IMG/VR virus record: IMGVR_UViG_3300045988_094645
Source of the DNA: a virus
Direction: 5' to 3' (one strand)
Length of the DNA stretch: 57,970 nt
Made by a program: the position numbers and the translations under genes. Below the pieces are notes generated by a model. The model was given only the letters and a program-made list of their open reading frames with translations, was not told the origin of the DNA and did no database searches. Below, piece by piece: positions 23,479 to 32,465 of the stretch; position 1 is the first letter of the stretch, and every line of letters starts with the position of its first letter.

Positions 23479-24168
23479 ATGGCTAAGAGTTCTAAAAGAT
23501 TAGGTAATGCTACTTTTGTCCAATATGGATATGGTCAAGTAGAACCAAACCATCTTTCCGCTCCAAGAAATGGTCAGGTATATGCCCAGCTTCCTGCTGC
23601 TAGCACAATCACCCTTCTTGAGAATGGTCAATTCGTAAAGTATGACTATGCTAAGGGTGTATGTGATTTTAGCACAGAGGCTACTTCTGGTGCTTGGATG
23701 ATGGTATTCAATGAGGTAAAAATTTATAGAGATCGTGAGACTGATGCCGATTTTGCTATGATTAAAGATAACTATAACGCTCGTGTTTATAGCCCAATCG
23801 GACAGATCGTTTCTACACTCGCTACCATTAATGACTATACTGGTGAAGCTGTACGTGAAGGTAGTAACGTAGCATATAAAAAGAATATGGAAACATTTAC
23901 TTATCCAGCTTTGATGCCAGAAGGAACTAAAATGGTTCCACGTGTAATTAAGATTAGTATTGGTGATATTTGGACGACTAATACTATTAAGGCTGATGCC
24001 GGTTCACTTGCTGTTGGAGATCGTTTAAAGATTGATACTGATGGTTATTTAACCGAGGATACTGAATCTTCTGCTAAGGGTGGAGATTTAGATCCTATCT
24101 TTACAGTAGTAAAAGTATACACCATGCCAGATCTTCAACCCGGTGTAAAAGTACAGCGTGTAGGTTAA
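23479..24168 (+). CDS. capsid-associated protein (229 aa; no TAG); major capsid or decoration protein
   Basis: supplied ORF, AAGGAGG RBS; lies between scaffold and the 350-aa capsid-like protein. Confidence 0.4.
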   Translation: MAKSSKRLGNATFVQYGYGQVEPNHLSAPRNGQVYAQLPAASTITLLENGQFVKYDYAKGVCDFSTEATSGAWMMVFNEVKIYRDRETDADFAMIKDNYNARVYSPIGQIVSTLATINDYTGEAVREGSNVAYKKNMETFTYPALMPEGTKMVPRVIKISIGDIWTTNTIKADAGSLAVGDRLKIDTDGYLTEDTESSAKGGDLDPIFTVVKVYTMPDLQPGVKVQRVG

Positions 24169-24187
24169 TTGGAAGGAGTGAAGAAGA

Positions 24188-25240
24188 ATGTTAGATAAAG
24201 CTAATTTACTTAGTTTAATGAAGACTGTCGCCAATGCAAATCCTTCTGGTACCTATAGCTATCAAGGAGAATCCTTTAGCTACGACGCTTTGAACACCAC
24301 TTTGCGCAATGAGTTAAATGAGCTTGTTGGCACAGATGAACTTTATAGAGAAAATAAACATACTCTATTCTCTTTAATTGAGCAAACTATGGATGAAGTT
24401 GTTCCTAATCGTTTACTCAATTCTTATGGCAATTTTGCCGAGATTAGAACTTTCGGACAGGGAGATAAACCTGTATTTACTCGTAGAACTGGACTTACCC
24501 GTGCTAAGCAATTCATCACTCGCGTTGGACTTGCTGGCGTATACGAGACCTTTAAGCTCGGTTCCGAGAGCTTCGAAGTTGGTACAAGTGCTATCGGCGG
24601 AGCTGCTCGTATCGGATTCGAGGAGTTCCTCGACGGAAGAGTAAACTTCGCAGAACTTACTCAGATTGTAACTGAGGGTATGCAAGAGCTTATTTATAGA
24701 GAGATTGCTCAAGCTCTTATGGGTTCTATTAATCAGCTTCCCGCAGCAAACCGTTGTGCCGTTGCTGGTTTTGATGAAGCCACTATGGATTATCTTGTAA
24801 ATACTGCTAGCGCTTATGGTCAGCCTACTATTTACTGTACTCGTGAGTTTGCAGTAAAGATGATTCCAGATAATGAGGCTTGGATTTCTGATAACATGAG
24901 AGATCAGTATTGGGGAACTGGATACCTTGCTAACTACAAGGGAACTAGAGTGGTAATTCTACCTCAAACTCTTGAGGATGAGACTAACTCTAGAAAGATG
25001 ATTGACCCTGGTTATGCTTGGGTTATCCCCGGTGGAGCAGATACCCGTCCTGTTAAAGTTGCTTTTGAGGGTACTACTCACGTGCGCGAGCGCGATGATA
25101 ACGATGACTGGTCTCGTGATATTCAGGTTTACCGCAAGGTCGGAGTTGGCGTAATGATGGCAAATAACATTTTCTCTTACGTTGATACTGAACTTCAAGG
25201 TGAGCTTGATAATACTAACCCAAATCCAAATAATGGTTAA
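24188..25240 (+). CDS. major capsid protein candidate (350 aa; no TAG)
   Basis: supplied ORF with GGAGTGAAG RBS; size and position fit an HK97-fold MCP; strong terminator follows. Confidence 0.5.
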   Translation: MLDKANLLSLMKTVANANPSGTYSYQGESFSYDALNTTLRNELNELVGTDELYRENKHTLFSLIEQTMDEVVPNRLLNSYGNFAEIRTFGQGDKPVFTRRTGLTRAKQFITRVGLAGVYETFKLGSESFEVGTSAIGGAARIGFEEFLDGRVNFAELTQIVTEGMQELIYREIAQALMGSINQLPAANRCAVAGFDEATMDYLVNTASAYGQPTIYCTREFAVKMIPDNEAWISDNMRDQYWGTGYLANYKGTRVVILPQTLEDETNSRKMIDPGYAWVIPGGADTRPVKVAFEGTTHVRERDDNDDWSRDIQVYRKVGVGVMMANNIFSYVDTELQGELDNTNPNPNNG

Positions 25241-25242
25241 TT

Positions 25243-25278
25243 AAAAGGGGATAGGGAAATATCCCTATCCCCTTTATT
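25243..25278 (+). terminator. intrinsic terminator GGGGATAGGGA-aata-TCCCTATCCCC followed by TTTATTTATT
   Basis: perfect 11-bp stem plus T-run directly after the capsid gene. Confidence 0.65.
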
Positions 25279-25301
25279 TATTGAGAAAAAGGAGATATAA
25301 T

Positions 25302-25838
25302 ATGAAAGATAAGTGTATTGTTTATAATAAAAGTGCGGGCCGCGCGGTATATAAACTGCCTGAGCTTGGTGTACGTCGTATGTTCTATCCAGGTGAGCAT
25401 AAAGAGATTAGTGTATCTGAGCTTGAAAAGTTGGTTCAAACACCCGGAGGCCGCAAGCTGATTTATAATTATCTATTAATTGATGATAAAGAAATTATTG
25501 AATATCTTATTAATGGGAAAGTTGAACCAGAATATTGGTTAAAAGAGAAAGATATTGATTCGTGGATGCAGTCATGCTCTTTGGATGAATTCAAGGATGC
25601 TCTTGATTTTGCCCCTGATGGGACAAAAGATTTGATTAAGGCTCACGCGGTTTCTCTTCCTTTGAATGATATTTCAAAGCGAGATGCGATAGAAAAACAA
25701 TTAGGTTTTAACGTTACTAAAGCGTTGGAATTAACCGCGGACGAAGGAAAAAATTCTAAAAATGAGGTTAAGCCTGTTAGAAGAGCATCGGTTGCAAGTG
25801 ATGATACTCCAAAGCGTAGAGTAACTATATCCGAGTAA
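25302..25838 (+). CDS. hypothetical structural protein (~178 aa)
   Basis: ATG at 25302 with AAAGGAG RBS; same frame as supplied ORF 25281-25838. Confidence 0.4.
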   Translation: MKDKCIVYNKSAGRAVYKLPELGVRRMFYPGEHKEISVSELEKLVQTPGGRKLIYNYLLIDDKEIIEYLINGKVEPEYWLKEKDIDSWMQSCSLDEFKDALDFAPDGTKDLIKAHAVSLPLNDISKRDAIEKQLGFNVTKALELTADEGKNSKNEVKPVRRASVASDDTPKRRVTISE

Positions 25839-30377: not shown

Positions 30378-30379
30378 TC

Positions 30380-30412
30380 TAAAGGGAGGACTTAATGTCC
30401 TCCCTTTTTCTT
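30380..30412 (+). terminator. intrinsic terminator AAAGGGAGGAC-ttaat-GTCCTCCCTTTTTC
   Basis: stem plus T-run. Confidence 0.65.
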
Positions 30413-30434
30413 TTTATAAGGAGTAATTGGAGTT

Positions 30435-31871
30435 ATGGATATTGATATTTATGATTATGTTTAGCGTTGGTCTATTAACTATATTGTATATCACAGTAGC
30501 CATTTGAGAGAATATGGCGACGTAGAATCAGCGAATACCTTATTCAGCGCATAGTATCAATAGGCAGTAAATAAAGCATAGACCGCGGGAATTGAGGCTT
30601 AGATCTCCTCAATTCAAGAATAGATGCAGCTAAAAGCGCCTTCCGCAGCCAGTGGATTAAAGATTCTAAGTGATCTAGAGATAGGAACCCTATTAGACTC
30701 TACTCTTGATTAGATTGCCGCCGGTATTAATGAGGGTATTGAATTAGCTGGTGGATAGGTAGATTTTGAAAACTATAATACTATATTGCAATAGGTTGGA
30801 AGCTTTAATAACTTGTTATCAACTGGTACACCGGAAATATAGAGAGTGAATGATTTCTTTAGGTTACTTATATCAGCTTTAACGAAAGCGAATATGATAA
30901 ATGTTAATGTTCTTGATGCTTTAACATAGATTGGAAGATAGCTAATAGGAACTAGCTTTTAGATAGATTAGGCATAGCAAAGTTATGTTATGGCTGTTGG
31001 CAAAGGAGATATAAATATCGCAAAAGATGTAATAGATTCTTTAAACAGGGCTGTTACTCGTTTAAGTGAATAGGGATCAGTAAACTCTCGTTCTTTTGCT
31101 AATACTATTGCTTATATATTTAGAAGGGTTATTGGAAATTAGATTAGTTAGGCGATAGTTGCAGAGGGTATATCAATAGGAGTTAATACCGCGGATAGTA
31201 TATTAGATAAGGTAATCGCGCAATCTGGTGGAAAATTGCGATGGGTTGATAAAGGATAGAATAATGTCTCTAAGTCTAAAGGTACTACAAATATATTTAA
31301 TAATGATACCTTTAGTTTGCAAGTAACCAAGGGCAATCAGACTTTTAATATAGAGATAGGGACAAATGTAAATGCAAGATGGCAAAATAAGAAAATGTCT
31401 TAGAATAAAATTTCTGCTTCTTCAAGTATGAATGTTGGAGAATATTTTTCTGGTTAGCCAGAGAAGTATCTTGCTTATAATATGATTGCTCATAGATATA
31501 CTGGAGCTGATTTTGAAGAATCGTTTAATAATATACGGGCTTCTGTTGCAGCGTCCTTCTTTAATTAGTGGATTCAGTCTAGTGAGTTTAGTTCATAGAA
31601 GGGTCATTTAGGATAGTTTATTATAGTTAATGGTAGAGTATTTTCAATCTAGCGAATTATTAATAATATCTGTGATGATATTGTTAGAAATAGTGCTCAT
31701 GAAGTGGTTTCTATTGGTGGAGAAGGCGCTCTGGGTAATAAGTGGTATGGCAATTCTGGAGCAAACATATTAGATGCAATCACCCGTAGTAATATAGTCA
31801 ATGGAGTTATAAATAAATTAACTATTGCAGCAACTTTAAATAATAATATACTATCTAAATACGCATATTAA
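30435..31871 (+). CDS. hypothetical protein (~478 aa) with an extreme density of in-frame TAG codons (~35; most predicted Gln codons are TAG)
   Basis: RBS GGAGTAATTGGAG; continuous frame-0 reading MDIDIYDYV[TAG]RWSINYIVYHSSHLREYGDVESANTLFSA[TAG]Y[TAG][TAG]AVNKA[TAG]... to TAA at 31869-31871; no TAA/TGA over 1.4 kb. Confidence 0.45.
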
Positions 31872-31934
31872 ACTTGACAATAGTTAATTTTTCTAGTATA
31901 ATAAAAATATAAATGAGATAAAGGAGATTTTACA

Positions 31935-32465
31935 ATGACTTTTAAAGATTTGGGGCTTGAGCCTAAAGTTAAATATACAGAAGTAAAGGTTGGAGCAGAT
32001 AAGATTTTGTCTGTGGCTAATTATCTTCCTATTGCTGATAAAACAAATCTTATTATGTTTGTCACTGATTTATCAATAGATGAGGCAACTGGCTGTTTTA
32101 GTCCAGTTAGAGTGGAGACCTATTTTGCTATTGCTATATGCAGATGGTATGGCGGAATTACTTTTGAGCCAGAAGATGTGCATGAAAATATCGCAAAAAC
32201 CTATGACACTCTTGAGACAAACGGTGTAATTGATGCAATTCGTGATATTATTCCGGTGGAGGAACTATCTTTTATTGAGGATTTAGTTAAGGATACTATA
32301 AGCGATATTTCAAGATATAATAGTTCTGCGGCCGGCATTATTCAGATGATGAATAAAAATGCTTCTGGTCTTGATACATATATTACTGATATGCTAGAAA
32401 AGATTAAGAATGGTGAAAATCTTGAAACACTATCAGTAATTAAAGATGTGGTTGGAAAAGATTAA
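31935..32465 (+). CDS. tail assembly chaperone-like protein (176 aa; no TAG)
   Basis: supplied ORF lying immediately before the tape measure gene; terminator-like hairpin GGCTCTTGAGAA...TTCTCAAGAGCC at 32503-32538. Confidence 0.4.
   Translation: MTFKDLGLEPKVKYTEVKVGADKILSVANYLPIADKTNLIMFVTDLSIDEATGCFSPVRVETYFAIAICRWYGGITFEPEDVHENIAKTYDTLETNGVIDAIRDIIPVEELSFIEDLVKDTISDISRYNSSAAGIIQMMNKNASGLDTYITDMLEKIKNGENLETLSVIKDVVGKD

Follow-up and report, generated by a model that had tools for sequence, protein, structure and literature searches.

Depletion of the reassigned TAG codon in the capsid and tail tube genes of an SPbeta-like, phAss-related siphophage

Introduction

Recoding of TAG has been described in the code-15 (TAG to Gln) gut phage phAss-1 and the proposed Phassvirus group (Babkin et al. 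2023, PMC10607447), where TerL and the tape measure protein (TMP) were named as TAG-containing and the capsid protein was not; gene-by-gene usage of TAG was not analyzed in that work. Here we examine a 57,970-nucleotide (nt) stretch of gut phage DNA, the IMG/VR record IMGVR_UViG_3300045988_094645 (GC content 34%; hereafter, the window), in which TAG is the commonest glutamine (Gln) codon of the late genes but is missing from the genes for the candidate major capsid protein, the tail tube and a 229-amino acid (aa) head-module protein. This pattern is probably best explained by selection for efficient translation, which removes TAG from the virion genes with the highest expression while the codon drifts nearly neutrally elsewhere, rather than by designed gating of translation.

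The phage represented by the window resembles the phAss-1 group and its EF1-like and SPbeta-like relatives in being a large siphophage with a very long TMP (approximately 2900–3200 aa). As in the phAss-1 group, TAG codons occur inside the TerL, portal, TMP and tail genes, and close relatives carry large tRNA arrays. Nevertheless, the window belongs to a different lineage, with 33–59% protein identity to phAss-1 and a TAG share among Gln codons of 0.55 compared with about 0.2.

Uneven use of reassigned stop codons among genes has precedents. For crAss-like and Agate phages, it has been proposed that selection drives recoded stops up or down in particular gene families (Borges et al., 10.1101/2021.08.26.457843), with the same test as here, namely recoded stop versus standard codons for the same amino acid per gene family. 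The enrichment in that study involved lysis genes and a tail tube family and was read as lysis timing, whereas the dominant signal here is a scarcity of TAG in the virion genes with the highest copy number, which goes with a codon bias older than the recoding. The capsid gene of crAss-like phages can carry recoded stops (Yutin et al., PMC7886860), so avoidance of TAG is not universal but lineage-specific. In ciliates, UAA and UAG are common as reassigned codons, but less so in the genes with the highest expression, which was attributed to translational inefficiency or stronger constraint (McGowan et al. 2023, PMC10553269). The ciliate case involves permanent reassignment in a eukaryotic nuclear code; the reassignment considered here is presumably transient, takes place in an infected bacterium with the standard code, and concerns genes whose expression is inferred. 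Classical translational selection likewise produces a coordinated shift over many amino acids in the most abundant proteins, the difference being that one of the codons disfavored in our case is read as a stop by the host. The literature searched yielded no explicit account of TAG avoidance in phage capsid or tube genes tied to codon adaptation; the case described here adds a clear example to known kinds of phenomena and extends them modestly. It touches on the open question whether in-frame stops in recoded phages serve regulation or are for the most part synonymous codons subject to drift.

The late module and the reading of TAG

When TAG is taken as sense, the summed length of the + strand open reading frames (ORFs) of at least 100 codons increases from 16.7 kb to 49.7 kb; TGA taken as sense gives no comparable gain. 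Read with the standard code, the + strand from 16 to 54.5 kb contains only short ORF fragments, whereas the TAG-sense ORFs are packed and co-directional, include frames of 2904, 1323 and 943 codons, and are the only reading that yields a contiguous + strand module:

16208..54513, + strand: late module (packaging, head, tail), 26 genes with 302 in-frame TAG codons

AAGGAGG-type Shine–Dalgarno sequences stand at the proper spacing before nearly all late ORFs and were used to set the 26 gene starts. The resulting lengths agree with TAG-sense gene calls on public contigs that encode identical proteins (229, 350, 178, 178, 121, 330, 178, 241, 464, 478, 176 and 2841 aa). Over the 26 genes, the 302 TAG codons outnumber both CAA (223) and CAG (69).

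For comparison, we used thirty IMG/VR loci that encode the capsid protein together with the phAss-1 locus, with orthologs assigned by BLAST on TAG-sense ORFs; loci of relatives are referred to below by L numbers. These relatives fall into seven clades, six of them at 97, 81, 76, 65, 65 and 55% capsid identity to the window, and phAss-1. In alignments with the seven clades, the partners of the window TAG codons are mostly TAG, then, in each clade, CAA or CAG, and then lysine or glutamate codons, in a test that is mildly circular because TAG was scored as Q during alignment; the reverse comparison, of TAG codons in the relatives with the window, is concordant in clades A to C. Judging from these alignments, and in agreement with the published phAss-1 assignment, TAG is read as Gln in the window. 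The recoding is concentrated in the late, structural genes: the minus-strand genes at 3.6–14.4 kb mostly have 0–1 TAG, with 3–6 in a reverse transcriptase gene and a few others.

The late genes were annotated from PHROGs, tblastn and precomputed Pfam hits, the latter for contigs that encode the exact 478-aa protein and show the same neighboring gene lengths. The annotations comprise a sigma factor-like protein, TerL, a homing endonuclease, the portal, a YonD_N family protein, the 229-aa protein, a YonB capsid protein, connectors (YomW and YomV-like), a YomU_Tube tail tube protein, the 478-aa and 176-aa proteins, a PhageMin_Tail TMP and large distal tail proteins. The SPbeta-like structural order is present (YonD, YonB, YomW, YomV, YomU-tube, followed by the very long TMP), and the tblastn matches of the structural module are to SPbeta-like and EF1-like phages. 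A local copy of Pfam gave no matches for ten head and tail proteins, and the PHROGs matches were mostly to families of 'unknown function'. Taken together, the late module in the window is that of a siphophage related to phAss and similar to SPbeta, with TAG translated as Gln. It is 99.4% identical to part of the record IMGVR_UViG_3300045988_093451.

Distribution of TAG among the late genes

Five late genes contain no TAG:

23479..24168, + strand: 229-aa head-module protein; 0 TAG among 8 Gln codons, strong high-expression codon bias
24188..25240, + strand: 350-aa major capsid protein candidate, YonB family (PF27364); 0 TAG among 13 Gln codons
25302..25838, + strand: 178-aa gene; 0 TAG, 3 Gln codons (P=0.09, uninformative in the window)
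28983..30377, + strand: 464-aa tail tube (major tail) protein, YomU_Tube family (PF27173), with a C-terminal extension; 0 TAG among 15 Gln codons
31935..32465, + strand: 176-aa gene upstream of the TMP gene, a chaperone by position only; 0 TAG, one Gln codon (P=0.46, uninformative within the window)

A count of TAG against CAA and CAG in each gene shows that the TAG share is heterogeneous over the 26 late genes (chi2=73, df 25, p=1.3e-6), which rules out a uniform TAG frequency. The weight of the signal is carried by the capsid, tube and 229-aa genes, none of whose 36 Gln codons is TAG, compared with a TAG share of 0.545 elsewhere; the lower-tail probabilities at this background are 3.6e-5 for the 350-aa gene, 7.4e-6 for the 464-aa gene and 1.8e-3 for the 229-aa gene. 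Among the 21 late genes that do contain TAG, its share is homogeneous (p=0.09). An earlier reading of the same DNA, made from the sequence alone, had described TAG usage as strongly gene-specific, with abundant structural proteins avoiding the codon. Gene specificity is borne out for the three genes just named and does not extend to the other 21; the 229-, 350-, 464- and 176-aa genes singled out by the sequence-only reading are all TAG-free as claimed, the last of them being uninformative with its single Gln codon.

The TMP, the fibers and the portal had been described as carrying many TAG codons, and the TMP, portal and large distal tail genes do. The portal gene contains 11 TAG codons, the connector genes 2–6, the TerL gene 14 and the large distal tail genes 32, 27, 7, 11 and 16; the TMP gene contains the most:

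32576..41275, + strand: TMP (PhageMin_Tail); 103 TAG among 203 Gln codons (98 TAG if the start is the ATG at 32750)

Along the genes, the position of TAG follows no strong trend. The base at +4 after TAG differs from that in the CAA and CAG contexts (p=2e-4), though not clearly from that after other NAG codons.

Immediately upstream of the 229-aa gene, a fourth gene of the head module is partly depleted:

22212..23465, + strand: 417-aa YonD_N family protein (PF27290), scaffold-like by position, acidic, with a coiled-coil C-terminus

It carries TAG at 4 of its 17 Gln codons (P=0.01), and its orthologs are TAG-depleted in all seven clades (e.g., 0/17, 0/21 and 0/13).

Assignment of the capsid and tube proteins rests on homology. 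In tblastn, the capsid protein matched proteins annotated as major capsid proteins in the Bacillus phages Thrax1, Thrax3 and Kirov, and it is 51% identical to that of phAss-1; the tube protein matches phrog_2729 (virion structural protein) and a 'major tail protein' of phage Thrax3. By this homology, the two would be the most abundant products of the module. The 229-aa protein belongs to a very large family; its structure model (pLDDT 41) is too poor to use. Searches of the PDB with the 229-, 350- and 464-aa proteins produced no meaningful match. Both the capsid and the tube gene are followed by a hairpin that starts 4 nt past the stop codon:

25244..25275, + strand: terminator-like hairpin with a 14-bp stem, after the capsid gene
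30381..30407, + strand: terminator-like hairpin with an 11-bp stem, after the tube gene

Strong hairpins after these two genes recur in relatives; the one after the capsid gene (-19.6 to -24.9 kcal/mol) is found in the same place in the window and in 5/7 relatives compared. Such hairpins would fit transcripts that are stabilized or attenuated at these points.

The tail module includes two further genes that bear on the distribution of TAG, as well as a promoter-like site:

28243..28968, + strand: 241-aa YomV-like gene (PF27211, weak hit); ordinary TAG share, 5/12
30435..31871, + strand: 478-aa, mostly helical protein; 25 TAG, 7 CAA, 3 CAG
31874..31902, + strand: perfect sigma-70 consensus (TTGACA, 17 nt, TATAAT) between the 478-aa and 176-aa genes; consensus match only

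The 478-aa gene, thus flanked by a terminator-like hairpin and a consensus promoter, had been said to read through about 35 TAG codons. It is indeed a TAG-rich gene, but with 25 TAG, 35 being the total of its Gln codons. Its longest open stretch under code 11 spans 72 codons. The possibility that this region is non-coding or split by genuine stops is ruled out by 42 full-length homologs in the protein database (469–534 aa, 31–100% identity), by collinearity with L004 across all 478 codons, with 76, 56 and 192 differences at codon positions 1, 2 and 3, respectively, and by an intact 469-aa homolog in the standard-code locus L047, which has no in-frame TAG and ends in TAG. On these comparisons, 30435–31871 is a genuine 478-aa gene. 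Its TAG share of 0.71 compares with a background of 0.55 (P=0.03, uncorrected), and its TAG density is 5.2 per 100 aa; the Gln content of 7.3% equals the TMP level, so the gene is TAG-dense mainly because it is Gln-rich. A structure model built from a 23-sequence alignment is of low confidence (pLDDT 54). No meaningful match was obtained with the 478-aa profile against the PDB, and no match at all with the family against the local Pfam copy or with the protein in tblastn against GenBank phages.

Codon bias of the TAG-free genes

The TAG-free genes differ from the other late genes in synonymous codon choice for eleven amino acids (p<0.05). For arginine, CGT accounts for 0.50 of the codons in the TAG-free genes versus 0.15 in the others, and AGA for 0.34 versus 0.60; for isoleucine, the ATA share is 0.06 versus 0.31; for leucine, CTT is at 0.44 versus 0.20 and TTA at 0.23 versus 0.46. 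GGT, GCT, TTC, AAC and ACC are also raised, and the usage of phenylalanine, glycine, threonine, asparagine, lysine and glutamate codons differs as well (p<0.01). In a principal component analysis of relative codon usage from which the Gln codons were excluded, the outermost genes at one end of the first component (28% of the variance) are the tube, capsid and 229-aa genes. The scaffold-like gene ranks next, in fourth place, and is thus intermediate in codon bias as it is in TAG share; the tube gene has the most extreme bias in the module. The first component correlates with TAG share (Spearman rho=0.64, p=0.002).

The same codon-bias markers set the capsid, tube and 229-aa genes apart in all seven clades. 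The link between TAG avoidance and predicted high expression, for which the sequence-only reading had proposed codon adaptation and ribosome-binding site strength as checks, is upheld by the first of these. The second gave nothing: Shine–Dalgarno strength is not associated with TAG share (rho=0.05, p=0.82). Expression levels are gauged here by the identity of the proteins, their codon bias and the hairpins that follow their genes.

In the standard-code locus L047, the capsid, tube and 229-aa genes show the same bias, with CAG at 27 of 33 Gln codons, whereas the other genes favor CAA (e.g., 136 CAA to 34 CAG in the TMP gene). The presence of this bias class in a standard-code phage indicates that it predates the recoding and that TAG avoidance is its extension. 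Across its 14 late genes, L047 (where the homolog of the 478-aa gene is at 10001–11410) has no in-frame TAG, so this phage group comprises both standard-code and TAG-sense lineages, which share their gene order.

Conservation of TAG avoidance and enrichment in relatives

The background TAG share varies from 0.13 to 0.54 across the clades. In each of the seven, the capsid, tube and 229-aa genes nevertheless have no TAG or hardly any, with per-clade probabilities from 1.5e-11 to 0.03; for the 229-aa gene, nearly all relatives have 0 TAG, the one exception being L021. The capsid gene carries a single TAG in three loci of close relatives, at Q240 in L005 and, independently, at Q313 in L006 and L007, and the window has CAG at each of these sites. 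TAG is therefore tolerated in the capsid gene and arises by single transitions but does not accumulate. Time is not limiting, given that the capsid gene differs from that of L004 at 73 synonymous codons without a TAG among them. TAG in the capsid gene is thus disfavored, not forbidden, which fits mutation–selection balance.

The opposite trend is seen in two families of the tail module. In the 478-aa family, TAG exceeds its background share in clade B (15/24 vs 0.25, P=1.3e-4) and in clade A (P=0.026); in the 241-aa family, it does so in clades C, D and F, with 11/15 vs 0.12 in clade F and P down to 5e-8. The 241-aa orthologs in L011, L014 and L031 hold an outsized TAG share in weakly recoded clades. 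Neither the 478-aa nor the 241-aa protein matched a lysis-related family in the PHROGs and Pfam searches. The two could simply be the least expressed genes; the 469-aa homolog in L047 has the weakest codon adaptation of its module (CGT 0.10, ATA 0.58).

Search for the TAG decoder

The window contains no tRNA gene. In the 99.4%-identical contig, a tRNA array is located about 9–10 kb past the left end of the window, and the arrays of close relatives consist of approximately 28 tRNA genes, including Gln(TTG), Gln(CTG) and intron-bearing tRNAs, together with a transfer-messenger RNA (tmRNA). In phAss-1, two adjacent tRNA-Sup-CTA genes are annotated next to nrdD. ARAGORN with and without introns, Rfam and anticodon-hairpin scans, applied to about 100 kb of related loci, did not find a CTA anticodon in the sampled parts of the 99.4%-identical contig and close relatives. 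Likewise, the anticodon-arm pattern of the phAss-1 suppressors is absent from the sampled parts of contigs of the window's lineage, and a search anchored on nrdD reached no CTA tRNA in this lineage.

The tRNA arrays have several unusual features. The phage tmRNA, encoded within the approximately 28-gene array of the TAG-recoding close relatives (L045 2025–2340 and L040 9990–10310; Rfam scores 114.6 and 76.8 bits), has the tag peptide DNDYFENYLAA. Insertions are found in tRNA genes at L045 4894–5012, L040 2690–3234 and L041 2404–2948 and 538–632; they include one of about 42 nt in the anticodon arm of one gene and one of 468 nt in a tRNA-Asp-like gene, and the set also comprises a putative 95-nt tRNA-Ile(TAT). 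A likely tRNA-Tyr gene at about L045 5203–5290 was overlooked by ARAGORN.

Selection for translation efficiency and the alternatives

We consider selection for efficient translation the probable cause of the observed distribution. In most late genes, TAG would be a near-neutral synonymous Gln codon that has drifted to about 55% of Gln codons, driven by AT-biased mutation in a 34% GC genome in which CAG becomes TAG by one C-to-T transition. For the top-output proteins, i.e., the capsid, tail tube and 229-aa head-module proteins and in part the scaffold-like protein, selection for fast and accurate translation would purge TAG together with ATA, AGA, TTA and GGA and keep CAG or CAA, CGT, CTT and GGT. 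The cost of TAG may stem from competition of the suppressor, which may be limiting, with release factor 1; if so, every TAG codon would bring a degree of truncation or delay, at a price that would rise with expression.

Several observations weigh against this scenario. No suppressor tRNA was located in the sampled sequence, so limitation of its supply is putative. A TMP with about 100 TAG codons implies near-complete read-through late in infection, which caps the termination cost per codon, and T at +4 after TAG is only weakly depleted relative to other NAG codons (p=0.08). The TAG enrichment of the 478-aa and 241-aa families in relatives does not follow from the scenario unless these genes are very weakly expressed. 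Furthermore, the codons that we take to be optimal are so labeled by their likeness to the bias of low-GC Firmicutes, and the shift toward AAG, GAG and CAG departs from the classical Bacillus pattern.

The sequence-only reading had proposed a design in which the proteins needed in the highest copy number are TAG-free to escape the level of the suppressor, and the TAG-rich genes are gated until the suppressor accumulates. This idea has a precedent in the proposal that family-wise enrichment and depletion of recoded stops time late and lysis genes (Borges et al., 10.1101/2021.08.26.457843), and it draws on the TAG enrichment of the 478-aa family in clades A and B and in the window, on that of the 241-aa family in clades C, D and F, and on the location of the 478-aa gene between a terminator-like hairpin and a consensus promoter. 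Nonetheless, we regard such a design as rather unlikely. Gating of TAG-dense genes as originally stated does not hold because TAG is the default Gln codon of the other late genes of the window, whose TAG shares are homogeneous, and none of the enriched families is known to act in lysis. The idea that independence from the suppressor is a matter of design fares no better: natural variants of the capsid gene carry TAG; the partners of the capsid protein in assembly (portal, connectors, TerL) need suppression anyway, so there would be no obvious assembly benefit; and the codon-bias class exists without recoding in L047. A weak form of gating may operate, judging from the family-specific enrichment in relatives.

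For the 176-aa and 178-aa genes alone, the lack of TAG might be due to chance and low Gln content. Their 1 and 3 Gln codons (P=0.46 and 0.09) would allow it, and the 178-aa homologs in L014 and L021 carry 3 and 1 TAG, respectively. The 176-aa family, however, has 0 TAG among 26 Gln codons over five clades (A, B, C, E and F). Multiplying the probabilities of these clades, taken as independent, gives about 1e-3, which is suggestive only. We consider chance as an explanation quite doubtful.

It is also conceivable, if improbable, that TAG is costly because it is decoded by a slower, non-canonical route and not by a CTA suppressor tRNA. In such a two-tier translation program, the highest-copy virion proteins would be insulated from the slow route, whereas the low-copy 478-aa and 241-aa families would be throttled by it.

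That the TAG-free genes were recently imported from standard-code phages, or evolve under another mutational regime, can be practically dismissed. Mosaicism is common in phages, and these genes have a GC content of 0.39–0.42 compared with 0.32–0.35 and a higher CAG share, but the GC content at third codon positions is only slightly higher, so that the excess lies mainly at codon positions 1 and 2, i.e., in amino acid composition; in addition, transcription-associated C-to-T deamination would be expected to yield more, not less, TAG in highly transcribed genes, and the genes are TAG-free in every clade. Recent import in particular is ruled out by the conserved gene order, by identities that drop in parallel with those of the neighbors in all clades, and by the large synonymous divergence without gain of TAG.

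The depletion in abundant virion genes is the clearest gene-specific signal and, along with the older bias, argues that TAG is still costly to translate and that much of its distribution reflects mutation–selection balance. In practical terms, the capsid gene is unusable for annotators as an indicator of recoding in this phage group. The lineage also suits a simple engineering test of the cost of recoding, by changing CAG to TAG in the capsid gene.

Other elements in the window

The right end of the window contains a diversity-generating retroelement (DGR) on the minus strand:

55656–57970, minus strand: DGR
55656–56873, minus strand: DGR reverse transcriptase gene (RVT_1, YMDD motif)
57315–57809, minus strand: ORF for a basic 164-aa Avd-like protein

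The template repeat at 57182–57246 matches a variable repeat at 57905–57969, with 15 of the 16 mismatches at template T on the + strand (A on the coding strand). On its right side, the window ends before the target gene is complete.

A gene for a PTH2-family peptidyl-tRNA hydrolase (13339–13668, minus strand; E=1.5e-16) adjoins a microbial PARG/macro-domain gene (13653–14417) and a gene with a FolD C-terminal domain (14976–15596). Speculatively, a peptidyl-tRNA hydrolase could handle drop-off products in a phage that reads a stop codon. The minus strand between 6000 and 14000 forms a GC-rich island (0.41–0.49 vs about 0.33 elsewhere), the genes of which are mostly TAG-free and favor CAG; in composition, the island stands apart from the remainder of the phage. 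Relative to the 99.4%-identical contig, the window has an insertion at about 3643–5224 that includes an HNH_3/NUMOD4 endonuclease gene (3669–4283).

Divergent promoter-like sites are present at 16126–16190. The first gene of the late operon (within 16126–17266) encodes the sigma factor-like protein (phrog_5767) and has 9 in-frame TAG codons; should this protein be a late sigma factor, it could not be made without decoding of TAG. Finally, the TerL and portal genes are separated by the insertion of the homing endonuclease gene (20195–20551; 118 aa, 3 TAG).

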